From a virus: a stretch of 20,019 nt of DNA. A program made the translations under genes and the position numbers. The notes beneath the pieces are model-generated. The model worked only from the letters and a program-made list of their open reading frames with translations, searched no databases and was not told the DNA's origin. The stretch is taken from UHGV virus genome UHGV-1706396; one strand, 5' to 3'. Below, piece after piece: positions 1 through 20,019 of the stretch. The stretch's first letter is position 1; each line of letters begins with the position of its first letter.

Positions 1-177
1 ATTGAGAAGCGTGAAGCGTTTGTTGTTAAGTTCGAATATAAAGCCAGTTGTGTCATACACACCAACCTGAATCTGCTCATTCGGTAGATCGGTGAGGATG
101 TCAGCTACACACTCATCAGCTAATTTCTGTACGTGTCCGATCTCAAGAGCGATTAGGCTGGAAATAGTGGTTTTCAT
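1..177 (-). CDS. Hypothetical protein, N-terminal part only (gene continues past the left edge of the window)
   Basis: ATG at complement of 175-177, open frame with no stop down to position 1 (MKTTISSLIALEIGHVQKLADECVADILTDLPNEQIQ...). Not in the ORF track because no stop lies inside the window. Weak RBS. Divergent from the HTH gene. Confidence 0.3.
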   Translation of the reverse strand, partial: MKTTISSLIALEIGHVQKLADECVADILTDLPNEQIQVGVYDTTGFIFELNNKRFTLLN

Positions 178-354
178 TCAATCAATCCATTCTAACTTAT
201 ACTATGGTAAGGAATACTACTAAAATTTGTATCAACACTGAATACATCTATATCAGATGCAAGTTAATTTTCTTACCTATTTTGGGCTAGTTTTTCTCCA
301 TGCATGGACCTTTGCTCGGTCTTACAAGTGCCTGCCGAAAAAAATGATAATAGC

Positions 355-397
355 TTTACAACCCTAACCTTTGATGTAATATCGGTAAGCACTTACC
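355..397 (+). promoter_or_regulatory. Sigma70-like promoter with overlapping palindromic operator upstream of the HTH regulator gene
   Basis: TTTACA at 355-360, 16-nt spacer, TAATAT at 377-382; perfect palindrome GGTAAG-CA-CTTACC at 384-397 over the predicted transcription start; start codon at 429. Confidence 0.35.
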
Positions 398-428
398 AGA
401 GAGAATTAAACGCGCAAAGGTTGTAACA

Positions 429-815
429 ATGTCTGACAACAAGATTGAATTTATAGAAAGTCGCTATGCTGCTTTTATCGCAGGGCTGATTGAATCCTCA
501 CCTATGAGTCAGGCCCAAATAGCCAGACTTATTGGTTATAAAAATGCCAACAACCTTTCTTTAATTAAAAGTGGCAAAATTCCTTTGCCTATCGATAAGG
601 TTCGTCCGTTGGCGCTGGCGCTGGGTATTGAGCCAAGTCGTCTTATGATGATGGTGCTGGAAGAACGCCAACCTGAACTCGCAGCATTTTTATACAAAGA
701 AGGCACCGCTCCTCTTAACGAGGACGAAAAACAGGTTCTTGCTGCATATAACGAGCGATTCGGTAAAGAGAAAGGCGCATCACAAAAGGTTGTTGAGGCC
801 ATAAAGTCTCTATGA
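429..815 (+). CDS. Helix-turn-helix DNA-binding protein (Cro/CI-XRE-like phage regulator)
   Basis: 128-aa ORF; HTH-like segment SQAQIARLIGYKNANNLSLIKSGK; AAAGG RBS 8 nt upstream of ATG; 3' end overlaps 3' end of the convergent integrase gene by 6 nt. Confidence 0.6.
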   Translation: MSDNKIEFIESRYAAFIAGLIESSPMSQAQIARLIGYKNANNLSLIKSGKIPLPIDKVRPLALALGIEPSRLMMMVLEERQPELAAFLYKEGTAPLNEDEKQVLAAYNERFGKEKGASQKVVEAIKSL

Positions 816-1913
816 AAAATTTACACGAATAAGCTCTGTTGATAGACGATCTCCCTTGAATTTGTGGTCAATTTCGTCTAAATCCGGTTGCTCTACGATT
901 GATGCGATGTACGTCGAGAAACTTTCTAAGGCGTCTCGCATCTCGTCCATATAATCGTGCCGGTCGTAGACCCGATCTATCCCCTCAAGACTGTGGTTCA
1001 TGATTTTGCGTGATACCTCCTGGCTTATGCCTAATGCTGGGAAGTAACTACGCGCAGTACGGCGCAAATCTCGGGGTGTAAATGGCTCAAGCTCCATCAG
1101 TTCTGGTCTTTCCAGAATACGACGTAATGCCTGGGCTATTGCCACTTTGGACATAGGAAGGTCTTTCCCGATTTTTTTATTCGAAGGCACGAGCCACTGG
1201 CTGTCTTTACCGTATTCGAACAACTCTTCAATGCATGTGCGCATTAATGTGCTTAAAGGCAGCGAATGCTCACGTGCTGACTTGTTTCTCTTGCCTTGAT
1301 TCCAAACTCCACGCTTAAGATTGAACTCACTTTTTTTAGCCCGCAGTACTTCGTCAGGTCGTCTTGCTGATACAAGACACAGTCTGGCCGCCCATTTTGT
1401 ACCAGCGCACACATTGAAGTAGTCCCATATATTCCAGAACACCCATACCTCTGCGTCGGTCAGCTTCCGCTCGCGAGGTGTGGGCTTTGCGCCACCGGCA
1501 ACTTTGTTTAGTGACATATCGTTTAACGGTGACACGTCTATCATCCCCTGGAAGGCGCACCAGCTAAGGAACTGCTTCATCAGAGAGAAAACGCGGCGGC
1601 CCATAACAATTTTGCCATCCAATATTAGAGGGTTGACCAGTTGGTTCACCATGAACCTATTAATGTCACTTACTTTTACATCGGCAATGTGCGGCAAAAC
1701 ATGTATCAAAATACAATGAACAGCGATCTCTGGCCGACGTCTGGTTATCAGCAGAGATAAGCGAGTGAATAACATGAATGCGTCCGAGAATCTCATATCA
1801 TTGCTAACCTGCGAGATCATAACGGCCTGCATTTGAGATGCTCTTTCGAGATACTCAATCGCCTCTTTTGAGGTGTTCTCCGCAGCGCGTGCTCTGTCAA
1901 AGCTATTTTTCAT
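810..1913 (-). CDS. int: Tyrosine-type site-specific recombinase / phage integrase
   Basis: 367-aa ORF; C-terminal catalytic signature of the tyrosine recombinase family (VSARRPDEV ... HSLPLS ... RDLRRTARSY ... HSLEGIDRVYDRHDY, i.e. R..H-x-x-R..Y); GGTGA RBS about 9 nt upstream. Confidence 0.85.
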   Translation of the reverse strand: MKNSFDRARAAENTSKEAIEYLERASQMQAVMISQVSNDMRFSDAFMLFTRLSLLITRRRPEIAVHCILIHVLPHIADVKVSDINRFMVNQLVNPLILDGKIVMGRRVFSLMKQFLSWCAFQGMIDVSPLNDMSLNKVAGGAKPTPRERKLTDAEVWVFWNIWDYFNVCAGTKWAARLCLVSARRPDEVLRAKKSEFNLKRGVWNQGKRNKSAREHSLPLSTLMRTCIEELFEYGKDSQWLVPSNKKIGKDLPMSKVAIAQALRRILERPELMELEPFTPRDLRRTARSYFPALGISQEVSRKIMNHSLEGIDRVYDRHDYMDEMRDALESFSTYIASIVEQPDLDEIDHKFKGDRLSTELIRVNFS

Positions 1914-2011
1914 ATGACAATCACCGAGTTACGCCGATTCACTGTATAAGTAAACAGTATATTAGGCATAGATTCTTATAGGATCAAGAGTAAAAGTAAC
2001 TCATTTTCACT

Positions 2012-2044
2012 AATGATTCCATACATAGTAGGTATGGAATCATT
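2012..2044. promoter_or_regulatory. Perfect 13-bp inverted repeat AATGATTCCATAC-N7-GTATGGAATCATT upstream of int; each arm is a copy of the recurrent ATGTATGGAATCATT motif
   Basis: Arms at 2012-2024 and 2032-2044; lies between the grx stop (2126) and the int start (1913). Confidence 0.4.
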
Positions 2045-2125
2045 TAGACGTTGTTTTTTGAATTTTAAGGGAAACAGGAGTGAGTTTGGTGGGAATAAAA
2101 AAACGGCTCCTGTGAGCCGTTAAAA

Positions 2126-2371
2126 TCAGAGGGTGCTGACGTATGCAGCCAGTTCTGTGTATCCGCCAATCGGCTGGCCATCGATCAGCACCTGGGGGAT
2201 AGTCTCTACCGGTTTACCAACAATTTCACTTAGTTTTTCCTTGTCGATACCGGCAGTGGTGATGTCGATGTACTCATAATCACCGTAGCCATGTCCCTTT
2301 AGTTGCTTCGCCAGCTCGACTGCACGTTTGCAGTATGAGCAGTTATCTCGTCCGTAGATAGTGATCGTCAT
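2126..2371 (-). CDS. grxA: Glutaredoxin 1-like small redox protein (Grx/NrdC-type, probable ribonucleotide reductase reductant)
   Basis: 81-aa ORF with CSYC active-site motif near the N-terminus and a GKPVETIPQVLIDGQPIGGY segment that closely matches the E. coli glutaredoxin 1 pattern as I recall it. Confidence 0.75.
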   Translation of the reverse strand: MTITIYGRDNCSYCKRAVELAKQLKGHGYGDYEYIDITTAGIDKEKLSEIVGKPVETIPQVLIDGQPIGGYTELAAYVSTL

Positions 2372-2439
2372 AACCTAACAAATACCTTTATAAATATTGA
2401 TTCGAACATATCAGACTATACTACAAACAGATTTTTTTG

Positions 2440-2459
2440 ATAAGTATGTAGTAACTTAT
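2440..2459. promoter_or_regulatory. Operator-like palindrome ATAAGT-N8-ACTTAT (copy 1 of 3)
   Basis: gATAAGTatgtagtaACTTATt in the divergent intergenic region between grx (start 2371) and the AT-rich gene (start 2545). Confidence 0.35.
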
Positions 2460-2544
2460 TTATTGACTGGTAAACAATTGAAGTGATTATGACAATAGAT
2501 TACAGTAAGGATTGCCTTGAAATGTACATTTTATAGAGGTTTTA

Positions 2545-3453
2545 ATGATTGGTAAGTTGTCTGATTCTTTGATTGAAAATAAATACAACGAATTTAGAGA
2601 AGAAATATCTTTACTTTTTGACTATTTAAATCAGATAAATGATACAACAAAGAAAAATATAAAACGTCTTCTAAAAGAAGTGGAGTATGCACAGAATCCA
2701 GATACTATTATTAATATTAATGAAACTATTAAGATTAAGTGTGGCACAACGTTAGCTCGCCATTTATGTTCAAACCCATATACAGGTTCAACATTAGAGA
2801 TAGGTAACAGCGCCATTGATTTAGAAGAAAAGATAAGATTGTGTAATGTTTTGAAGAATAAACAATATCAGTGGGTTATTACTGAAGCCTATGAGTTACT
2901 GGAAGACTATATTGAGGCAATATATGTCTATACTGTATGTGTTCGAAATGATTTCTGGTCCTCAAGTAATTTTGGTAAGGTTGAAGATGATGACATTGGG
3001 AAAGGGGAAGTTTATTACAAATTATTAAAAGCAAAAAGTAACCCATCGAAAAAAATAATTAAAATTTTCAGAAATAAAATACCTGGCTTCAAAGAGATAG
3101 AAATAAACAACAAGATTGGTAAAAACTATCGCTTTAACATCAAGCTAATTGAACTACTAAGACATACAATAGTACACAATAGTGGACGATTCAATGATAC
3201 AGAAAAATTTATAAATAAGGTTTTAGATGAATCTGAAATAAACGGTAAGAAAAGAGTTATTGGAGAAAGAGCTGTTAGAAGTTACATTGCTAAAGTGCAA
3301 GAAGATGATATTGTAATGCTCTTAGAAAGACCATCTGAAATTTTTGGTTCTTTTGGTGGTTATTTTAACAGAGCAAAATTTTTACTAAGTGATATTTTAG
3401 AATACTCACTAATCATTAAAGAAGAACTAAAATCATATCTAGGCAATCATTAA
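2545..3453 (+). CDS. AT-rich accessory protein of unknown function with HEPN-like Rx4H motif; candidate abortive-infection / defence protein
   Basis: 302-aa ORF, markedly lower GC than its neighbours (K/N/I-rich); GAGG RBS 6 nt upstream; R206-H211 motif RHTIVH (nt 3160-3177) fits the HEPN Rx4-6H consensus with a polar residue after Arg; opposite strand to flanking genes; own terminator. Confidence 0.55.
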   Translation: MIGKLSDSLIENKYNEFREEISLLFDYLNQINDTTKKNIKRLLKEVEYAQNPDTIININETIKIKCGTTLARHLCSNPYTGSTLEIGNSAIDLEEKIRLCNVLKNKQYQWVITEAYELLEDYIEAIYVYTVCVRNDFWSSSNFGKVEDDDIGKGEVYYKLLKAKSNPSKKIIKIFRNKIPGFKEIEINNKIGKNYRFNIKLIELLRHTIVHNSGRFNDTEKFINKVLDESEINGKKRVIGERAVRSYIAKVQEDDIVMLLERPSEIFGSFGGYFNRAKFLLSDILEYSLIIKEELKSYLGNH

Positions 3454-3454
3454 C

Positions 3455-3486
3455 AAAAAAAGGGGCCGAAGCCCCTTTGAATTTTG
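3455..3486. terminator. Bidirectional rho-independent terminator between the AT-rich gene and the tRNA cluster
   Basis: Hairpin AGGGGC-cgaa-GCCCCT (3461-3476) followed by TTTGAATTTTG on the plus strand and by a 7-T run on the minus strand (the A-run at 3454-3460). Confidence 0.75.
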
Positions 3487-3552
3487 CGCTGAAAAAAGTG
3501 TTGCTAGGATGTTAGCAAGCTATGGTTAAGAACGTCTGCCGTAATTGTCTAT

Positions 3553-3630
3553 CACAGCGTTGAGCGGTCTGGTTTATGTTAGCGGAGTCTTAATCTGGGT
3601 GATTAAAAGGCCAAACCGCTCAACGCTGTG
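3553..3630. repeat. Long inverted repeat (20-bp arms, 19/20 complementary, 38-nt loop) immediately 3' of the tRNA cluster
   Basis: CACAGCGTTGAGCGGTCTGG at 3553-3572 and CCAAACCGCTCAACGCTGTG at 3611-3630; arm sequence related to the repeat at 4901-5022. Confidence 0.6.
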
Positions 3631-3632
3631 TC

Positions 3633-3719
3633 TGGCGGAGAGTAATGGAATCGAACCATCATCGCTTGCGCAATGGGACGGTTTTCAAGACCGCTTGAGC
3701 ACCATGCTCCCTACTCTCC
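3633..3719 (-). tRNA. tRNA-Ser (anticodon TGA), class II with long variable arm
   Basis: Hand fold of the minus strand: acceptor GGAGAGT/ACTCTCC, anticodon stem GCGGT/ACCGT with loop CTTGAAA, T-arm GATGG-TTCGATT-CCATT, encoded CCA. D-arm is atypical (short loop or 3-nt linker). Confidence 0.65.
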
Positions 3720-3905
3720 GGCCGTTGTGGTGGCCGGTACTGAATCTCCGGCATACGGTGCAGCCAATTAGGACTACGGACGATCACCGCTCGCGAAAGG
3801 GAAGGTTTGCGGCCGCATTTCCCTAACATCCAAGAAAGCTATCGCATCAGTCTGCGAATCCACCACAACGGAAAGAGCATTCACGTCTCGCGTGCCACCA
3901 CGAAT

Positions 3906-3929
3906 GGCAACTCAGAGAGTCGAACTCTG
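3906..3929 (-). other. tRNA-like 3' fragment (T-arm plus acceptor 3' strand) without a recognisable 5' half; pseudo-tRNA or possible att core
   Basis: Minus strand reads CAGAG-TTCGACT-CTCTG-AGTTGCC with conserved G53, T54 T55 C56, A58, C61, but no D-arm or anticodon arm could be folded upstream. Confidence 0.3.
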
Positions 3930-4387
3930 AAAATGCTCTTACCTGTTGTGTGCTGTGTCACTCCCTCCGCTATTACCTGGCTTTGCCTCGACCTTTTAGG
4001 TTGCGTCCGATGATAAACAGGGCTGTCGGAAATTTGTCTGTGACACAGCGATAAGAGAACTCGATGCATTTAAGCCAAGCCCCATATGGGAAGTTCTCTT
4101 ATCTGTTGTGCGCTCCGTTTCGTGGAGCTAACGGCGGGTGAACAGGCCGCACCAGGTTGGACATATTTCAGCGTTATGCTGTTGCAAGAGAGCCAAATTG
4201 TGATGGTCGGTGCTGAACTCCGACACAGGGTTGTAGCAAGCCCCGCAAAGCGCGCACTACTGTAGTTGCGGCACATCAGCCTGTGCATTCACCACAATGT
4301 TGAGAACACTGGTTGTCACGCTGCAACGCAACATTTATTCATAGATTGGGATATGACCCCGTTACGCCAATGTTCTCAATATTATGT

Positions 4388-4463
4388 TGGTGCCGGTTAA
4401 CGGACTTGAACCGCTGACCATTCGCTTACAAAGCGACTGCTCTACCAACTGAGCTAAACCGGC
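4388..4463 (-). tRNA. tRNA-Thr (anticodon TGT)
   Basis: 76 nt: acceptor GCCGGTT/AACCGGC, D-stem GCTC/GAGC, anticodon loop TTTGTAA (27-43 pair mismatched), T-arm AGCGG-TTCAAGT-CCGTT, encoded CCA. Confidence 0.8.
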
Positions 4464-4467
4464 AATT

Positions 4468-4554
4468 TGGTGGGGAGTGATGGAGTCGAACCACCCGAGT
4501 CGCAATGACAGTAGATTTACAGTCTACCCCGCTACCCCTACGGACTAACTCCCC
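4468..4554 (-). tRNA. tRNA-Tyr (anticodon GTA), long variable arm
   Basis: 87 nt: acceptor GGGGAGT/ACTCCCC, anticodon arm GTAGA-CTGTAAA-TCTAC, T-arm GGTGG-TTCGACT-CCATC, discriminator A, encoded CCA. Confidence 0.85.
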
Positions 4555-4559
4555 TAAAT

Positions 4560-4634
4560 TGGCGATGGTGGGTGGATTCGAACCACCGACCAGTTGGTTA
4601 ACAGCCAACTGCTCTACCGCTGAGCTACACCATC
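4560..4634 (-). tRNA. tRNA-Asn (anticodon GTT)
   Basis: 75 nt canonical cloverleaf: acceptor GATGGTG/CACCATC, D-stem GCTC/GAGC, anticodon arm GTTGG-CTGTTAA-CCAAC, T-arm GGTGG-TTCGAAT-CCACC, encoded CCA. Confidence 0.9.
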
Positions 4635-4825
4635 AATTCGGCACTGCCAGTATTTATTACTCAACAGTGCCAATCGCGACGGTTTAGTTTCTGCCAGGAA
4701 ACGCACCGCTACTTGCACTTTTCGTTAGTGCCAGACGCTTTCGACTTCGCTCAATAGTAGAAGGCAAACTCTTTAAGTAGATGATGTTTCTGAGGACAGC
4801 ACCTACTTTGTAATTTATACAATGT

Positions 4826-4842
4826 GATGTATGGAATCATTT
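4826..4842. promoter_or_regulatory. Recurrent motif GATGTATGGAATCATTT (copy upstream of the tRNA cluster)
   Basis: 17-mer identical to 5838-5854 and matching both arms of the 2012-2044 palindrome. Confidence 0.35.
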
Positions 4843-4900
4843 GTTGTGAAAACAGGCACCAATGGCAACAGTGGTTAAACCTACACAACTATTCTGTCTT

Positions 4901-5022
4901 CACAACGTTGAGGCCACTACTCCGATTGAATGTTTGCCCAACATGTTACATATCAACGCTCGCCGGTATCTCTGTGAATAGAACCTTAGAATTGATAAAA
5001 ATGTAATGGCCTCAACGTTGTG
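4901..5022. repeat. Perfect 15-bp inverted repeat pair separated by 92 nt, 5' of the tRNA cluster
   Basis: CACAACGTTGAGGCC at 4901-4915 and GGCCTCAACGTTGTG at 5008-5022; arm resembles that of the 3553-3630 repeat (CACARCGTTGAG). Confidence 0.6.
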
Positions 5023-5098
5023 TGCTGGCTAACCATACCAGCCGGGCTACGTCGCCGCTTTTTAACCCAGTATAAACGACATAATTGAACAAAATGAC

Positions 5099-5207
5099 GT
5101 AACAGAATGGGCGGTCAGTGGCTAAGAATCCGGGAGTCATATGGAGTTGAAAATATACCGACCGCCCATTCTGTTACTTCATCGGAGGGAACACTCATGT
5201 TCCCTCC
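5099..5207. repeat. Two adjacent strong hairpins in an ORF-poor region (18-bp perfect stem with 43-nt loop, then a GC-rich 10-bp stem with 4-nt loop)
   Basis: GTAACAGAATGGGCGGTC at 5099-5116 pairs with GACCGCCCATTCTGTTAC at 5160-5177; GGAGGGAACA-ctca-TGTTCCCTCC at 5184-5207. Confidence 0.55.
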
Positions 5208-5382
5208 TGCGTTCTGCAATCACACTCGCTCAGTGTGTCCCATTTCGGTAACGAGGCTGGAAACTGACCTCGCTGGTGTTTGGCTTATTAGGCTACTGCC
5301 AGATAGACTTCTTCGTTTGCACTTGTATTTAAGTTCAAACAGTCGCGTCTCAACGAAAACAAAGTCATCTTATACACAAAAG

Positions 5383-5402
5383 ATAAGTAAGTAAATACTT
5401 AT
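5383..5402. promoter_or_regulatory. Operator-like palindrome ATAAGT-N8-ACTTAT (copy 2 of 3; flanked to a perfect 7-bp inverted repeat)
   Basis: GATAAGT-aagtaaat-ACTTATC at 5382-5403, just 3' of the 5413-5703 gene. Confidence 0.35.
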
Positions 5403-5412
5403 CAATATGTTT

Positions 5413-5703
5413 TTATTCGGTTGTGACTTTTTTGATCAAGGCCACTCTAGGACTAGGTGTTCTTGTAATGGTGGCAGTGAATCGTTTCGCTTGGATAGTA
5501 ATGGTTTCGTTCTCCTTAAGTTGCCCGTAGCGAGTTTCCACCAGGGTGCCAAGACGCCACAGACCATCATCGATACGTTTATGACTAGCAAATTTAATCA
5601 GCAACAGTTTTACGACTAACTGACCTACGTAAAAGGCGAATGCGACTCCGGCCGCTAAGAAATAGGTGACCAACCACCAGTCCCAAGAAGTTAAATTGCT
5701 CAT
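5413..5703 (-). CDS. Small membrane protein (one N-terminal transmembrane helix), unknown function
   Basis: 96-aa ORF with hydrophobic segment WLVTYFLAAGVAFAFYVGQLVV; AAAGG RBS 8 nt upstream; preferred over the overlapping plus-strand ORF 5407-5619, which has no RBS. Confidence 0.45.
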   Translation of the reverse strand: MSNLTSWDWWLVTYFLAAGVAFAFYVGQLVVKLLLIKFASHKRIDDGLWRLGTLVETRYGQLKENETITIQAKRFTATITRTPSPRVALIKKVTTE

Positions 5704-5837
5704 TTTCTAACCTTTGTTTCATGAACTACCCGATACACACGCTTTCCGATGCACAGTGTTTTGGTTTTAAGTTCCTGCTTAATTAAATCACGACAGATGC
5801 CGAAGCCGATAAGGAAGCCACCCATAAAAGCTAATGA

Positions 5838-5854
5838 GATGTATGGAATCATTT
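5838..5854. promoter_or_regulatory. Recurrent motif GATGTATGGAATCATTT (third site)
   Basis: 17-mer identical to 4826-4842; about 135 bp upstream of the 5413-5703 gene start. Confidence 0.35.
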
Positions 5855-6064
5855 TAACACTCCTGATTCTACTAATTGCTGTAGCAATACTTTCCCTTTA
5901 TCAGTTAACTGGTAGTTGGCCGAACACTTCGTTTCAGAAACGTTTGCAACCAACCCTAACCGCTCTAACTTAGCCCGCGTTTTAGGCTTCCAGTACTCAG
6001 GGAACTCTGACCACTTACTGATTTCATGAAGCGTTTCCTTCTCCCGCTTACTTAATACGATCAT
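5849..6064 (-). CDS. Hypothetical small protein (71 aa)
   Basis: ORF with AAGGAG RBS about 8 nt upstream; start lies inside the 3' end of the preceding small ORF. Confidence 0.5.
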   Translation of the reverse strand: MIVLSKREKETLHEISKWSEFPEYWKPKTRAKLERLGLVANVSETKCSANYQLTDKGKVLLQQLVESGVLK

Positions 6065-6227
6065 CCTTAATCTCCTTCACTGTGTGGGTTATTTCTACAA
6101 TGCGATAAATACGACCGCGTCGTTCTATAACACCGCTTTTAATGTAGTCATTGATGCAACTGGACATCACCACAATACCGATTAAAAAACCAACCGCTAA
6201 AAATGCAATCATCCAGCCGAGCATCAT
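6048..6227 (-). CDS. Small membrane protein (59 aa), translationally coupled to the ligase gene; not in the ORF track
   Basis: ATG at complement of 6225-6227 overlaps the ligase TGA stop (AATGATG); GGAG RBS 8 nt upstream; translation MMLGWMIAFLAVGFLIGIVVMSSC... contains one TM helix; stop at 6048-6050. Confidence 0.45.
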   Translation of the reverse strand: MMLGWMIAFLAVGFLIGIVVMSSCINDYIKSGVIERRGRIYRIVEITHTVKEIKDDRIK

Positions 6228-7546
6228 TCTTTATCTCCGATTCGATCTTCTGTATCGCGTAAGCAACGCGGCCATTTCAGTCGTGGGTGGCGTAAGCTGC
6301 CATCCGGCGTTTTCTCGTGACAATGAACCTCGACAATACGACCACGGTACTTCTCTTTGTTGTTCCAGATCTCGTCCAGATATTTATGCTTAATGCCGCT
6401 TGCACGAACAATCACACCGTTTTCAAGTCGAATAACAATTTTTCCAAGCGTGTTGGCAAAACCAGAGTCCGGGTCGCCCGGCTCAAAGTCGATAATTTCA
6501 CCATCTTCTGAATCTTCGTCTTTTAACTTCCACCAGCTGCGGGTACGTTTAAACTCGTAAACAGAGTTCGGATCTTTGCCCATCTCCCCTTCTTCGTTAT
6601 CGTCCAGGCGTTTCATGAAGCGTTCGATGAAGTCTTCGTGGCTATGGATGATGTAGAACGGATGTAGGTGAATGTCTTGCGCGTAGTCTTCACTGCGATC
6701 GTTTTTGAACAACGCCACGAGAATAGCCAGGCGCTCTTTCAGCTTCATACCTGTCTTTGCATACTCTTTGGATTTAGCCTGTGCCCGCCATTCCGGTAGG
6801 AAGAAGTCGAAAACATGATAAATAGCGCCAATTGCCTGCACGTTCTTTTTGCGCAATGCAGATACGGACTGGTTAAATGAACCGGCTGTTCCTTCACCAT
6901 CGAAGAAGATGTGTTTGTGGCCTGAAAGTTTGCCTAATTCGAGCATGGCTGGCTTTAGGTGATCGAGAGACGTGATTGGATTACCAGTACGAGAAAGGAA
7001 GTTCACCTCTTCCTCGTCAACAATAACCTCGCAAATTACTCGCAAACCATCGAGCTTAAGGCTGCCAATCATCGGCCATTTTGCTTTAGGATTTGGCTTG
7101 AAGGGGTATTTGTCGCCTTTTTCTTTATACGGTGACGCCAGCTGCACCTCGAATTTCGGAATGGGATTTTCAAAAACCTTGTTGCATAGGCTAATCCCAA
7201 CGCCAGCTTTCGGATCTTTTAAGAGGAAACGACGGAACACGTCCTGCCCATCGGCGCACATTGACGCCACGATAGACTCAACAGCAGCTATTGCTGCGTT
7301 CCCCGTCAGCTCGCGAGAGGCCAGCTTATTCAGTATATCAATGGCTTTTTCGTCACTTGGGACGGACTCACTAAGCGGCTCTGCCACTTTGTATTTCTTT
7401 ACCCCAAAACGGATGAAAGGGTTGAGCATCAATGAAACCATGCTTTGCTCGAAGTCATCCATGTTGGCCAATGCCTCTTTTTTTGCATTGGTTCCCATAG
7501 TTTTCATTTCGTCCAGCTTATGCTTAAGTGCGATCAACTTTTTCAT
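6224..7546 (-). CDS. ATP-dependent DNA ligase
   Basis: 440-aa ORF with the adenylation motif K-x-D-G in SLKLDGLRV, characteristic of ATP-dependent ligases. Confidence 0.8.
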   Translation of the reverse strand: MKKLIALKHKLDEMKTMGTNAKKEALANMDDFEQSMVSLMLNPFIRFGVKKYKVAEPLSESVPSDEKAIDILNKLASRELTGNAAIAAVESIVASMCADGQDVFRRFLLKDPKAGVGISLCNKVFENPIPKFEVQLASPYKEKGDKYPFKPNPKAKWPMIGSLKLDGLRVICEVIVDEEEVNFLSRTGNPITSLDHLKPAMLELGKLSGHKHIFFDGEGTAGSFNQSVSALRKKNVQAIGAIYHVFDFFLPEWRAQAKSKEYAKTGMKLKERLAILVALFKNDRSEDYAQDIHLHPFYIIHSHEDFIERFMKRLDDNEEGEMGKDPNSVYEFKRTRSWWKLKDEDSEDGEIIDFEPGDPDSGFANTLGKIVIRLENGVIVRASGIKHKYLDEIWNNKEKYRGRIVEVHCHEKTPDGSLRHPRLKWPRCLRDTEDRIGDKE

Positions 7547-8025
7547 TGTTGTTTTGCCTCCATATGTTGATCGATTTGCTCATGTGTTTCTTTTGTTGTT
7601 TCTTCAAGCAACGCCGCATACACGTCAGTGATCGCTGTTTGTGATGTGGTGCTCTTCTTAACCATGCTATTAATCGTTACACTGTCACGTTTTCGTTTTA
7701 TAGTTCTGGCTTGTTTATTCCGTTCTTCAACCTCCTTAATGAGCGCGGTCATATCTTCGAAATACAGAGATTCTCCTTTACGAATCTCTTCAACCATCAT
7801 TTTTAACGCCTTGCATTTGCCTGCTTTGATAGCGGTTGCGCACGACTGGAATGAAGTTCGAGGAAGACGGTTTTCTTTGAAGGCAAGAATGGTGTGCTGG
7901 CAAACGGAGTAGCTGCAATATGCCGACTCACCGTTTATCTTTACTTCCTCACAACGAAGTGAATAACCATTATTTCCTGAAATAGAGGGGATTTTTGACA
8001 AATCAGCTTTCACAACTACCGCCAT
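7543..8025 (-). CDS. Hypothetical protein, Cys-rich N-terminal region (possible zinc-binding)
   Basis: 160-aa ORF with ATG start; stop overlaps the ligase start (ATGA); cysteines in CEEVKINGESAYCSYSVCQH; no SD, but the GTACTTACCTATC motif lies 10 nt upstream. Confidence 0.5.
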   Translation of the reverse strand: MAVVVKADLSKIPSISGNNGYSLRCEEVKINGESAYCSYSVCQHTILAFKENRLPRTSFQSCATAIKAGKCKALKMMVEEIRKGESLYFEDMTALIKEVEERNKQARTIKRKRDSVTINSMVKKSTTSQTAITDVYAALLEETTKETHEQIDQHMEAKQQ

Positions 8026-8938: not shown

Positions 8939-10120
8939 TTACGATAGCGCCTTAATGCCCAAAACCTTGCTTTGCAACTCCAACTGTTTGGTATACGGTT
9001 TTGCCCGATAATAGGCTTTGATAATTTGTTCTGGCGTTGCACCGCCCGGGTCGAGTCCTTCCTCACCCAAACACGCAACTTTGACATTAAGACCGATACT
9101 GGTCAGTCGCCTGGCTGCGGCCATAGTGTTGCGTATAGCTTGCTTTTCACTATCCCACATCATGATCACATTACGTAACCCACGCGCCTTGAGCGTCAGG
9201 AACGCGCCTAACTGATCTTCTGCATCCTGAGTGGTGTTACCAGATAGATGCATCCCGAACGTTCCTATCGGTTCCACGTAATCACGTAATGTTTCTTCAT
9301 CAAAAATAGCTCGTTTAACCCCCATAACATCGAACGCCCCCTCACAGACAACTACAGTCTGTTTGCCGACCGCATTATGGCCGTTGTAGAGAAACTTACC
9401 TGAAGCTGGAAGCTGCATAGGAAAGAGGTAGCGGCGTTCTGCTGTACCGGTAATGTCTCGTCCCTGAAATGTCTTCATTACCCCATCCAGATCGTAAACC
9501 GGTATCAGTATTCGCATATCGAATATCTGTCCTTTAACCTGATCTGTATACGGATCTACATAAGCGTGCTTGCCTTCGACGCAGTATCGTAGGTCAAAAT
9601 ACTTTGCCATTTCAGGCGATATGTTTCGTTCAACCAGATAGTCTGGAAGACGGCCATCTATAGGAAGTTCGTAATGACGAGGGAGTGCAAGTGGTCCCTC
9701 TAACTCGACTGTGCTTGTAAGCACTATCTCTTCTTTCTTTGGTGCCCACCCCTGGGAAAGAAGAGCGTTCTGCACATATTCCTCGAACTGTCGTCGTGAT
9801 TTACCGCTGTAGTGCTTGAGGAAGACCAGCTTATTGAACTGAATCTCTTCGGGATGATCACCAGCGAAGCATTTGCCGACGCCACTGGTCAGATTGAAAT
9901 ATACCTTCCAGTTGGAGCTGCCGCATACCGGACACTCCTTGATATTCACTTCACGACCGCGAGCACTCACGCCTCCACGTCGATAAACGATACCTTCAGT
10001 GTCCAACCATTGTTCAAAATCTAATTCGGTAATTAGCTCTTTCAGCTCGCTCACGATAATTCCACTTTTAACAGGCAATATTGTGACCAACCTAAATGTT
10101 GATATAACATAAAGGCTCAT
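8939..10120 (-). CDS. DNA primase (zinc-ribbon plus TOPRIM, DnaG/T7 gp4 primase-like)
   Basis: Zinc-binding CPVCGSS...CFAGDH; TOPRIM-like VVVCEGAFDVMGV and MMWDSE. Start uncertain: the track start (GTG at 10192) lies inside a hairpin; first ATG is at 10120 with a weak RBS; a GTG at 10054 with GGA upstream is an alternative. Confidence 0.7.
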   Translation of the reverse strand: MSLYVISTFRLVTILPVKSGIIVSELKELITELDFEQWLDTEGIVYRRGGVSARGREVNIKECPVCGSSNWKVYFNLTSGVGKCFAGDHPEEIQFNKLVFLKHYSGKSRRQFEEYVQNALLSQGWAPKKEEIVLTSTVELEGPLALPRHYELPIDGRLPDYLVERNISPEMAKYFDLRYCVEGKHAYVDPYTDQVKGQIFDMRILIPVYDLDGVMKTFQGRDITGTAERRYLFPMQLPASGKFLYNGHNAVGKQTVVVCEGAFDVMGVKRAIFDEETLRDYVEPIGTFGMHLSGNTTQDAEDQLGAFLTLKARGLRNVIMMWDSEKQAIRNTMAAARRLTSIGLNVKVACLGEEGLDPGGATPEQIIKAYYRAKPYTKQLELQSKVLGIKALS

Positions 10121-18268: not shown

Positions 18269-20019
18269 TTATTCTTTAGGTGAATTTAACTTCGATTCAA
18301 GTTCCTCAACTCTTTTTGTCAGTTTCTGAATATGGTGAATAAGCGGGACAACCAGACGATCATACATGACACCTTCTGCGACCATCCCATTATCAGACGC
18401 TATACTTGGATCATCTTTGTCTGTAAGAGGACGCCAGTGAACATATTGCGGTGCTATTTCTCCGACTTCTTCTGCAATAAGGCCATAGTGCCCCCAATCT
18501 TTTCGGTCCGTTTCGCATGTAGATCGATACCATACGGGACGTAGTTTCAACACTTCGTCCGCGTACTTGTTCTCTAAAGACTCGATATCAGTTTTATATC
18601 TACGCGATGATGTCGAACGGAAAACCTTGTTATACCCAGCAATAGGGCTAACAAACATATTAGGGCTATCCGTAGTAGTCATGATGTCATAAATATACAA
18701 GTCGTAGCACGACACCATGTAAAACGCACCATCTAGATTCCCATTTTCCAACGCTCGTTTAGAAACATAATCGTTGAGTTTAGTATTTACTTCCCCAATG
18801 GTGTAAGCACCTAAATCCAGTGCGGTTAATGTAATATTCTTACTACCGTCAAACGCTACGCCGTTAATTGTACGTGCTGTTTGCAACTTGGTTGCTGTTG
18901 CAGCATTACCAGTAGTGTTCTGATTACCGGTCGTATTCACACCAGGTAAGTTAATATTGGCTGTACCGTTAAAACTAACACCACCGATAGTACGAGCCGT
19001 TTGTAACTTCGTGGCTGACGCCGCGTTTCCTGTTGTGTTCTGATTACCAGTCGTATTAACACCAGGCAAGTTAATATTCGCAGTACCATCAAAGCTCACA
19101 CCGCCGATAGTTCTTGCCGTCTGTAGTTTTGTAGCTGTAGCAGCATTACCCGTTGTGTTCTGATTACCGGTGGCATTGACACCTGGAATTGAGTCTTTGG
19201 ACGTATAAACTTGCGCCCACTCTGACCAACTAGCTGTATCAGTATCTCGTCGCGAACGTACATGTACAGGTGCATGAGCGCCACTTGTACCGCTCCAACC
19301 TATGAACAACTCGCCTTCACCAACGGCTGTTGCCCCCTTAAGATGAAGCACATTCCCGTAAGTCGAAGGATAGCCGTTGTTATATGCCTCGTACATCTGC
19401 AATCCAGTAGCAGCACCTTGCGTTGTGCCTGTGAGCGCAGTAACGCGTCCTCTGGACGTAATTGTTGGTATCGAAATATTCGCAGAGCCGTTAAACGACA
19501 CTCCGTTAATAGTTCTCGCAGTTTGCAACTTGGTCGCTGTAGCCGCGTTACCGGTAGTGTTCTGATTACCAGCAGCATTAACTCCAGGAAGATTAATGTT
19601 CGCAGTGCCATCGAAGCTAACACCACCGATGGTTCTTGCTGTCTGCAATTTAGTAGCTGTAGCAGCATTACCTGTGGTGCTTTGGTTGCCAGCTTTGTTA
19701 ACTCCGGGCAAGTCGATGTTGGCAGTTCCGTTAAATGAAACGCCACCAATCGTTCTTGCCGTTTGAAGTTTTGTAGCGGTTGCGGCATTACCAGTAGTGC
19801 TCTGATTGCCTGCCGTGTTTACACCAGGCAAATTTATGTTCGCAGATCCATCGAAGGCCACGCCACCGATAGTTCTTGCAGTCTGCAATTTCGTGGCGGT
19901 ACTCGCATTGCCATTCAATGAACCAGTTAATCCACCTGTAACTGACAACGGACCTGAAACCGTCCCTCCGGTTGTTGGCAGTGCTCCAATATCTGATGGT
20001 GTAGGTTTCTGATGTGAGC
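18269..20019 (-). CDS. Tail fibre protein, C-terminal part (gene continues beyond the right edge), with tandem fibre repeats and a C-terminal intramolecular chaperone-like domain
   Basis: The frame stays open from 19948 to the window end, so the track start (TTG) is an artefact. Repeats of ...GNQNTTGNAATATKLQTARTIGGVSFDGTANINLPGVN...; C-terminal ~130 aa (SRRYKTDIESLENKYADEVL...) resembles the autoproteolytic chaperone domain of phage tail fibres and endosialidases. Confidence 0.85.
   Translation of the reverse strand, partial: SHQKPTPSDIGALPTTGGTVSGPLSVTGGLTGSLNGNASTATKLQTARTIGGVAFDGSANINLPGVNTAGNQSTTGNAATATKLQTARTIGGVSFNGTANIDLPGVNKAGNQSTTGNAATATKLQTARTIGGVSFDGTANINLPGVNAAGNQNTTGNAATATKLQTARTINGVSFNGSANISIPTITSRGRVTALTGTTQGAATGLQMYEAYNNGYPSTYGNVLHLKGATAVGEGELFIGWSGTSGAHAPVHVRSRRDTDTASWSEWAQVYTSKDSIPGVNATGNQNTTGNAATATKLQTARTIGGVSFDGTANINLPGVNTTGNQNTTGNAASATKLQTARTIGGVSFNGTANINLPGVNTTGNQNTTGNAATATKLQTARTINGVAFDGSKNITLTALDLGAYTIGEVNTKLNDYVSKRALENGNLDGAFYMVSCYDLYIYDIMTTTDSPNMFVSPIAGYNKVFRSTSSRRYKTDIESLENKYADEVLKLRPVWYRSTCETDRKDWGHYGLIAEEVGEIAPQYVHWRPLTDKDDPSIASDNGMVAEGVMYDRLVVPLIHHIQKLTKRVEELESKLNSPKE
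18838..19213. repeat. Tandem ~96-bp coding repeats inside the tail fibre gene (second repeat block)
   Basis: Three to four imperfect in-frame 32-codon units encoding the TATKLQTARTI motif. Confidence 0.7.
19456..20019. repeat. Tandem ~96-bp coding repeats inside the tail fibre gene (first repeat block, runs to the window edge)
   Basis: At least five imperfect in-frame repeat units; the two blocks are separated by a non-repetitive domain. Confidence 0.7.

Follow-up and report, generated by a model that had tools for sequence, protein, structure and literature searches.

We found that a 33-bp inverted repeat at positions 2012-2044 of virus genome UHGV-1706396, of which a stretch of 20,019 nt was analysed (the window, to which all coordinates refer), and the adjacent tyrosine recombinase gene int constitute a two-part module that is conserved across plasmids of the Enterobacterales. 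The repeat, hereafter called the palindrome, lies 99 bp upstream of int, and solitary copies of its arm recur a few kilobases away. The explanation that we prefer, to which we assign a probability of roughly 65%, is that the palindrome is a lox- or dif-like site of the recombinase (Int) and that the solitary copies are half-sites belonging to the same system. Judged from the sequences, it is highly probable that the palindrome is the recombinase's own core recombination site.

The 13-mer GTATGGAATCATT occurs exactly four times in the window: at 2012-2024 (minus strand) and 2032-2044 (plus strand), where it forms the arms of the palindrome, and at 4829-4841 and 5841-5853. The 17-mer GATGTATGGAATCATTT is present exactly twice, on the plus strand at 4826-4842 and 5838-5854, as the original prediction had stated, and both copies can be extended to 21/22 identical bases. 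When up to three mismatches were allowed, four matches to the 17-mer were found against 0.05 expected, and none of 100 shuffled sequences reached four. The motif is therefore real and not a product of chance, in agreement with the earlier view. The element at 2012-2044, which had been described as a perfect palindrome, consists instead of perfect 13-bp inverted arms around an asymmetric 7-bp spacer, ATAGTAG; read as 16-nt arms, it contains one mismatch. The two arms do share the 13-mer, but the 15-mer ATGTATGGAATCATT that had been ascribed to both is complete in the left arm only, the right arm reading AGGTATGGAATCATT. The distances given for int (99 bp) and tRNA-Asn (192 bp) were correct. The copies had all been placed between genes; the one at 5838-5854 is not intergenic and covers the ATG (5850-5852) of a 50-aa minus-strand open reading frame (ORF). 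The features concerned are the following.

429-815, plus strand: gene for a helix-turn-helix (HTH) protein, convergent with int; weak HTH_19 match; part of the module only in phage-plasmids; rival candidate for binding the motif.
810-1913, minus strand: int, encoding a tyrosine recombinase of 367 aa, the protein proposed to bind and recombine the palindrome.
2012-2024: left arm of the palindrome, AATGATTCCATAC; exact in every int-positive SSU5-like locus retrieved without the motif as query.
2025-2031: spacer ATAGTAG, where crossover is presumed to occur; 7 nt long in every locus examined.
2032-2044: right arm of the palindrome, GTATGGAATCATT; BLAST homology to many relatives stops at 2044-2046.
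2045-2070, plus strand: one-sided conserved flank, on the side away from int, with a short G/C-rich stretch, a T-run and a hexamer; possible accessory sequence.
2102-2121, minus strand: intrinsic terminator of the glutaredoxin gene, separating the palindrome from upstream transcription.
4826-4842, plus strand: putative half-site T, core 4829-4841; 192 bp upstream of tRNA-Asn, non-coding.
5838-5854, plus strand: putative half-site M, core 5841-5853; overlaps the start of ORF 5700-5852 (minus strand) and the stop of ORF 5849-6064.
5700-5852, minus strand: gene for a 50-aa membrane protein (MIPYISLAF...), the first five codons of which are site M; PHROG 6302, E = 8e-37.

The region 1900-6300 matched Escherichia phage CMS-2020a (98%), phage Cyrano, the pLF82 plasmid prophage (98%), and Salmonella phage SSU5 (77%), together with more than 1,300 plasmids of E. 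coli, Klebsiella, Salmonella, Enterobacter and Yersinia. These matches identify the window as part of a phage-plasmid of the SSU5 supergroup, of the Escherichia (pSLy3-like) type (group names as in PMC11652158).

Relatives were retrieved with an Int protein alignment as query and one genome per species, a sampling chosen to remove ascertainment bias. In all 29 loci obtained, on plasmids and phage-plasmids, a 13-7-13 palindrome lies 45-195 bp upstream of the int homologue. A second retrieval through cobS, in which the motif was not used as query, revealed perfect arms in every int-positive SSU5-like locus. A search of IMG/VR for the arm pattern with any 7-nt spacer gave 80 loci, with int adjacent in 79 (59-100% identical) and the remaining locus cut at its end. 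The spacer is invariably 7 nt long and falls into about ten sequence classes (ATAGTAG, TTAATAG, CTTACAA, TATATAA, CTAAAGA and others), with a YT...AR pattern at its outer positions. The arms differ between clades of the recombinase. Clade A (int 57-100% identical), which includes Yersinia pestis pMT1, Kluyvera, Buttiauxella and also Chimaeribacter contigs without phage genes, has arms of the form AATGATTCCATAC. In clade B (int 47-52% identical; Pantoea, Rahnella, Erwinia and Hafnia, mostly on contigs of 100-700 kb) the arms read (T/A)(G/A)TGACTCCAGAC, the same two core changes being mirrored in both arms. Phage-plasmids of Xenorhabdus and Providencia (int 44-46% identical) carry type-B palindromes at the same place, and the arms of L113-115 and L194 (L numbers denote individual loci) are intermediate between the two types.

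Clustering of neighbouring ORFs showed that int is the only gene conserved beside the palindrome. The HTH protein of the window had no tblastn match in the Chimaeribacter, Pantoea or Rahnella loci, direct inspection of one Rahnella and one Chimaeribacter locus revealed no HTH gene convergent with int, and loci L092-L116 contain neither an HTH homologue nor a conserved small neighbour, though the palindrome is present. The palindrome thus does not consistently co-occur with the HTH regulator, a result that covers the palindrome only. Since int keeps its palindrome even at loci that lack the HTH gene, the binder of the palindrome is more likely the recombinase than the HTH protein. The original prediction had proposed binding sites for a phage-encoded regulator, or a promoter element. 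The copies do look like recognition sites for a protein encoded by the phage-plasmid, but the evidence favours the tyrosine recombinase over the HTH protein or a promoter.

Some further observations concern the arms. L194, a 71-kb Photorhabdus contig with an int homologue 48% identical, carries at 9907-9939 a degenerate palindrome (10/13 matched) with hybrid arms, TCTGACTCCAGAT and GTCTGGAATCAAA; the replicon is smaller, with Rep3 and ParA genes close to int, and the site may be an evolutionary intermediate or decaying. Arms of either type include GANTC, the methylation motif of the CcrM type, as GAATC or GAGTC, and the phage-plasmids encode adenine methyltransferases, which is likely a coincidence. 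In Klebsiella-type lineages the invariant Int peptide (D/G)VWNQG is encoded as GATGTATGGAATCAAGG, a 14-nt match to the arm inside int itself (at 8107 in L088 and about 600 nt into int in L147-L162). In the window the match, CTTGATTCCAAAC at 1296-1310, is weaker, with three mismatches. The likeness to the arm is in all these cases probably a coding coincidence.

Int matched the Pfam family PF00589 (Phage_integrase) above the cutoff (E = 4.7e-10) and PF22022 (integrase central domain) weakly. Its nearest outgroup relatives are P4/CP4-57-type integrases, at most 34% identical; these carry the arm-binding domain PF13356, which the Pfam search did not find in Int. In an AlphaFold2 model (predicted local distance difference test score, 86.4) the N-terminus is predicted to be helical. 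Foldseek comparison of the model gave a probability of 1.00 to lambda Int, Tn1549 Int, XerH, IntI and Cre, and also matched XerA; the best matches were to lambda Int 75-356, the core-binding and catalytic domains. R185, K211, R284, H307 and Y316 are conserved in 39 aligned sequences. A profile search of the sequences in the Protein Data Bank gave no match to Cre, and Foldseek related Int to Cre chains with E of about 8e-3 at about 10% identity. On the model and the domain searches, Int is predicted to be a two-domain tyrosine recombinase without an arm-binding domain, and its outgroup places the family as derived from P4-like integrases. We found no characterisation of this family in the literature searched.

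The position of the palindrome fits a simple recombinase/target layout, in which two inverted arms of 11-15 bp around a spacer of 6-8 bp lie near the gene; here the layout is 13-7-13, 99 bp from int. In about 50% of the cases tested, working targets have been predicted correctly from palindromes with arms of 13-15 bp located no more than 1 kb from a tyrosine recombinase gene, and published target searches have been confined to Cre-type proteins and 8-bp spacers (PMC10250229). The literature searched contained neither the 13-mer nor a resolution site for SSU5-like elements. We propose that one Int monomer would bind each arm of the palindrome, and that strands would be exchanged across the 7-bp spacer as at loxP, FRT or dif.

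What the module would do for its carrier was considered from its distribution and expression. A PLSDB search with a Pantoea member of the family returned 927 places in 924 plasmids, one copy each, of which 891 were non-mobilizable; the matches included pMT1, a plasmid of 616 kb from Rahnella and, from Pantoea, plasmids with sizes of 330-560 kb. The region of int and the palindrome was located at 282 places in 5,426 complete E. coli genomes, none of them chromosomal and all with the palindrome intact, and no split palindrome was found among the loci examined. RNA sequencing data of strain LF82 (supplement to PMC9928086) showed that int of Cyrano is expressed at log2(fpkm+5) values of 5.6-10.3, where fpkm denotes fragments per kilobase per million (5.6-10.4 for int and the HTH gene taken together). 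The flanking ligase, MIPYI, cobT, cobS and dnaE genes were near the floor, with values of 2.3-6 for ligase, cobS, cobT and dnaE. As the module is plasmid-borne in a single copy, has no chromosomal copies in these E. coli genomes and expresses int in the lysogen, a maintenance function is favoured over integration. The chances seem about even that the module resolves multimers and thereby stabilises the low-copy plasmid prophage; it may also exchange DNA between co-resident related elements, and may autoregulate int.

Such a role has close precedents. In P1, Cre acts on the plasmid prophage and resolves its dimers. Cre/loxP, like Dre/rox, Vika/vox, Nigri/nox, Panto/pox and the YR series, likewise comprises a single tyrosine recombinase without an arm-binding domain and a target beside its own gene, and these targets have 13-bp inverted arms and a short asymmetric spacer, as here (for site architecture and search logic, see PMC10250229). 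The present system differs in that its spacer is 7 bp rather than 8, its arms have no similarity to loxP and Int is not Cre-like in sequence; it also has the conserved one-sided flank, and solitary half-sites at a distance, which loxP lacks. Another resemblance is to the single-recombinase Xer systems (XerS/difSL, XerH/difH and archaeal XerA/dif), in which the gene lies beside its own dif-like inverted-repeat site and serves dimer resolution, and two of which, XerH and XerA, were among the structural matches of Int. Those systems act on chromosomes and depend on FtsK, and their sites have arms of about 11 bp and a 6-bp spacer, whereas the 13-7-13 site is borne on plasmids and phage-plasmids. 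By-eye comparison of the motif with the Fur box, Ter, dif and loxP revealed only weak similarity.

We then examined the solitary copies. In the complete genome of Cyrano (108 kb), the closest annotated relative, the 13-mer is present in exactly five perfect copies; there are no copies with one or two mismatches, and matches with three mismatches are at chance level. The five copies lie within 9.2 kb: the two palindrome arms, site T upstream of the tRNAs, site M at the MIPYI start, and a third solitary copy, site D, about 253 nt inside dnaE (codons ~84-88), just left of the window. This genome-wide search on a relative, with five copies in 108 kb and all within 9 kb, did not show a motif widespread in coding regions. 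The identity of the 17-mers is not explained by two plus-strand ORFs beginning MYGII, as had been considered; these ORFs are not conserved, and the true start, MIPYI, is on the minus strand and concerns 5838-5854 only. A small peptide ORF at 4826 was rejected for want of conservation: its reading in SSU5 is MIPYIQ-stop, and the indels have lengths that three does not divide.

The solitary arms lie 2.8, 3.8 and about 6 kb from the palindrome. Sites M and T are oriented as the near palindrome arm and D as the other arm, so that all three point toward the palindrome in every lineage examined. In hand-checked lists of about 18 distinct lineage variants per solitary site, the twelve bases GTATGGAATCAT are invariant at each site and the flanks vary. 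Site D falls in a hypervariable loop of DnaE (AKES-MR/GG/KG-CMESL-ER/VR), where all its synonymous positions are frozen; type-B phage-plasmids have this loop without the motif, as do L189 and L192, two lineages of Klebsiella. That the dnaE copy marks the true start of the protein (MESL...) was rejected on the conservation of 84 upstream residues. Downstream of the non-coding site T, the sequence in SSU5 diverges with indels. Site M is embedded in an operon: the start codon of ORF 5700-5852, which is annotated as a coding sequence in both Cyrano and SSU5, overlaps the TGA stop of the upstream ORF 5849-6064, forming an ATGA junction. These results show that the solitary sites are selected as DNA.

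A connection between site T and the palindrome was seen in some lineages. In L189 and L192 the variant GTATGGAATCACA is found in both palindrome arms and again, unchanged, in the T-like site. L191 and L193 have palindrome arms with CATT or CATC as their last bases, and a T-like site with CATT in that position. These shared variants tie site T to the palindrome and Int, by common recognition or by arm exchange. Reading of the sequences around the solitary sites revealed no degenerate partner arm at 6-8 bp and no accessory flank. Hybrid contexts expected as recombination products (palindrome with T, palindrome with M, or inversion between D and M) were absent from about 170 loci. Mosaic breakpoints at the solitary sites were not seen either; L176 switches lineage at about 2374, not at a site.

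We judge it a toss-up whether the copies at 4826, 5838 and in dnaE are solitary arms that bind single Int monomers, maintained by selection on the DNA and all pointing to the palindrome. Our best guess for their role is accessory, architectural or regulatory rather than recombination. A second job for Int is a more tentative idea, which we think less likely than its absence: monomers on the three oriented half-sites would organise or repress the early-replication and tRNA region, in the manner of XerD on XDS sites or of the recombinase-fold repressors of SPbeta, or else the hypervariable interval between the palindrome and T, which carries defence, toxin-antitoxin and tRNA genes, would be a cargo bay serviced by Int and exchanged between related phage-plasmids.

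Several known systems make use of such solitary sites. In TnpI/IRS of Tn4430, an inverted-repeat core is accompanied by single copies of the same motif as accessory sites; those repeats lie within a 116-bp site, whereas the arms described here are kilobases off and the conserved flank is unlike the arm. XerD binds solitary XDS sites in Bacillus subtilis, and the MrpR, YopR and SroF repressors of SPbeta-like phages likewise bind solitary sites, for unloading of structural maintenance of chromosomes (SMC) complexes or for repression. The SroF structure was among the Foldseek matches of Int, at rank 43; for SroF, MrpR, YopR and XerD the homology shown does not go beyond the fold, and Int keeps its catalytic residues. 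The sfx sites of the Rci shufflon have one conserved arm and a 7-bp spacer, the other arm being variable, and DNA inverts between them. This one-armed anatomy resembles the solitary sites, but the ~170 loci contain no inversion or hybrid junctions. These precedents are leads drawn from general knowledge rather than tests.

A number of results weigh against the explanation given above. Support for binding and recombination by Int is indirect and consists of co-variation, at the sequence level, of the arms with the recombinase clades, and the shared variant of L189 and L192 may go back to just one evolutionary event, or to gene conversion. Among the ~170 loci none had a junction that pointed to deletion or inversion between sites, or a hybrid one. 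The first His of the HxxR box is replaced by Arg281 in the whole clade, as in one outgroup integrase. In L189, site M has decayed to GTATGGGATCAA, with a TTG start codon and the peptide kept, which indicates that conservation of M is partly coding. Genomes without int (SSU5 and L163) still keep solitary sites; SSU5, which has no palindrome, retains M, T and D alone. In their dnaE context these genomes hardly differ from int-positive relatives, which makes the loss of int look recent. Type-B phage-plasmids have the palindrome and no solitary sites, and the half-sites are therefore not intrinsic to the module. Finally, the HTH protein occurs in all SSU5-like phage-plasmids, of both arm types, and is hence a possible binder of the solitary sites.

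That last point leads to a different explanation, in which the motif copies are operators of a phage regulator such as the HTH protein (429-815), or a phage promoter, controlling int, the tRNA cluster and the small-gene operon. The palindrome does lie directly upstream of a plausible int promoter (TTGATC-18-TAATAT, minus strand, 1987-1958), the convergent HTH gene accompanies int in all SSU5-like phage-plasmids, and its putative recognition helix is fairly conserved. We nevertheless consider this explanation improbable, since the palindrome stays with int where the HTH gene is missing and its arms co-vary with int clades, and since arms of 13 bp, with a spacer fixed at 7 bp, exceed the length usual for an HTH operator. 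Five copies in 108 kb without degenerate ones are unlike a promoter class or a regulon. Two solitary copies lie in coding sequence, one in dnaE and one at the ATGA stop/start overlap, and the T-like site of L189 is downstream of a tRNA rather than upstream. In a scan for sigma-70 promoters and terminators, none of the six promoter-like sites in 1-8000 overlapped a motif copy, so that no sigma-70-like hexamer pair coincides with the copies, and no terminator overlapped them; the hairpin has no U-run directly after it. It is also unlikely that the palindrome alone is functional and the solitary copies are relics, left as scars or gene conversions by Int-mediated or homologous exchange, or in the case of M simply the coding of MIPYI. 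The lack of partner arm and accessory flank would agree with this, as would the type-B phage-plasmids that manage without solitary sites, the decay of M in L189 with its peptide kept, and the missing D in L189 and L192; arm exchange with the palindrome alone would explain the shared CACA variant. Relics, however, would not be expected to keep twelve bases invariant at three loci across lineages about 25% different in DNA, where adjacent bases and codons vary freely, nor to be frozen at the synonymous positions of D in a hypervariable loop, nor to keep their orientation toward the palindrome in all lineages.

Two other explanations fared worse. An element acting in RNA, as a transcribed hairpin, with the solitary copies serving antisense pairing of the dnaE mRNA with the MIPYI mRNA and the tRNA leader, is very improbable. 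The 13-bp stem with its 7-nt loop is stable on either strand (-17.8 to -19.3 kcal/mol; z = -3.2 and -4.7), the dnaE and MIPYI copies of Cyrano share 20 nt in inverted orientation, and a T-to-C change in SSU5 would still form a G-U pair. This 20-nt identity is lost in sister lineages, however, and the stem is frozen in sequence, not only in pairing, over 57-100% int identity without G-U-type asymmetries. In addition, the loop is strictly 7 nt, no U-run directly follows the stem, the Rahnella site is between divergent genes, and identity with the arms of a recombinase-linked palindrome would have to be coincidence. Scarcely any weight is left for the palindrome being a phage attachment site (attP), through which int would integrate the phage-plasmid or an internal island into the chromosome or a tRNA gene in the style of P4. 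It is to the P4/CP4-57-type integrases that Int is closest (<=34% identity), and the module adjoins a tRNA cluster. Against this stand the absence of chromosomal cases among the 282 places in 5,426 E. coli genomes, a palindrome never split into attL and attR, the absence of PF13356, and the failure to find arm-type repeats or duplicated tRNA 3' ends. We therefore retain the lox/dif-like Int site with solitary half-sites.

The flank of the palindrome away from int deserves mention. Although BLAST homology stops at the palindrome boundary, the first ~25 nt beyond it on this side are constrained. Of 68 distinct flanks, drawn from both clades, about 38 have the hexamer A[AT]T[CT]T[GA] at offset 16-17, although elsewhere the flanks cannot be aligned; in the window it reads ATTTTA (2062-2067). 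This one-sided flank may be an accessory sequence.

Genes in 1-8000 are mostly on the minus strand, in the order, by falling coordinate, ligase (6224-7546), small ORFs, four tRNAs (3633-4634), a variable stretch, glutaredoxin (2126-2371) and int. A hypervariable cargo hotspot (2045-4560) lies between the palindrome and the tRNA cluster. The inserts found in it differ among relatives and comprise a YafO toxin, IS3, Gp49, and Acb2/Tad1-like, Tad2-like and PhoH-like genes; the palindrome and T are accordingly 1.6 to 6.7 kb apart in these relatives. The insert in the window is an AT-rich ORF of 302 aa (2545-3453; PHROG 35492) that weakly matches an anti-restriction nuclease. Between tRNA-Ser and tRNA-Thr, the spacer (3720-4403) contains no credible ORF. 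Its part 4096-4403 is about 92% identical to the upl-plp region of phage P1, and segments flanking the tRNAs match P7 and D6, which suggests, from sequence likeness, that tRNA-region DNA is exchanged between P1-like and SSU5-like phage-plasmids. Long hairpins at 3553-3630, 4901-5022 and 5094-5182 have arms of 20-26 nt that are 92-95% complementary, and two of them share the stem CACA(A/G)CGTTGAG; the stem at 4901-5022 is conserved in SSU5 and its loop varies. The three may represent structured RNAs, or else mobile hairpin elements, of the non-coding stretch (560 bp) that lies upstream of the tRNAs. An Rfam scan returned only tRNAs and, within this stretch, sub-threshold matches to transfer-messenger RNA (tmRNA) at 5237-5412 on the minus strand (permuted tmRNA, 22.7 bits, E = 0.44; beta-tmRNA, 17.3 bits, E = 0.083), and ARAGORN found no tmRNA there. 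The small membrane-protein genes at 5700-5852 and 6048-6227 (minus strand) look paralogous, each with an N-terminal transmembrane segment followed by C..D.IK......R.YR.VE.T; they share an operon and flank a 71-aa putative winged-helix ORF (5849-6064). At the far end of the window, 18833-19894 contains four copies of a ~300-nt unit in 120-bp register, 65-74% identical, within the minus-strand ORF 18269-19948, probably a tail-fibre gene by synteny with Cyrano.

E. coli, Klebsiella, Salmonella and Yersinia pestis commonly harbour phage-plasmids of the SSU5/pSLy3/pKpn/pMT1 type, which have genes for resistance and defence among their cargo. How such elements are maintained as plasmids is poorly described. 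For their 'integrase', unannotated so far, the present analysis provides a probable function and a target defined to 33 bp. The family comprises about 110 protein clusters of P4-derived recombinases without an arm domain, carried by large plasmids of Enterobacterales; its targets are of two types, naturally orthogonal to each other, and come in many spacer variants. Should they prove active, these proteins would be new tools with 7-bp spacers, outside the published 8-bp Cre-type searches. The half-sites, one of which is in an essential polymerase gene with its synonymous positions frozen, may reveal a role of a recombinase other than recombination, or the mechanism of a cargo hotspot.

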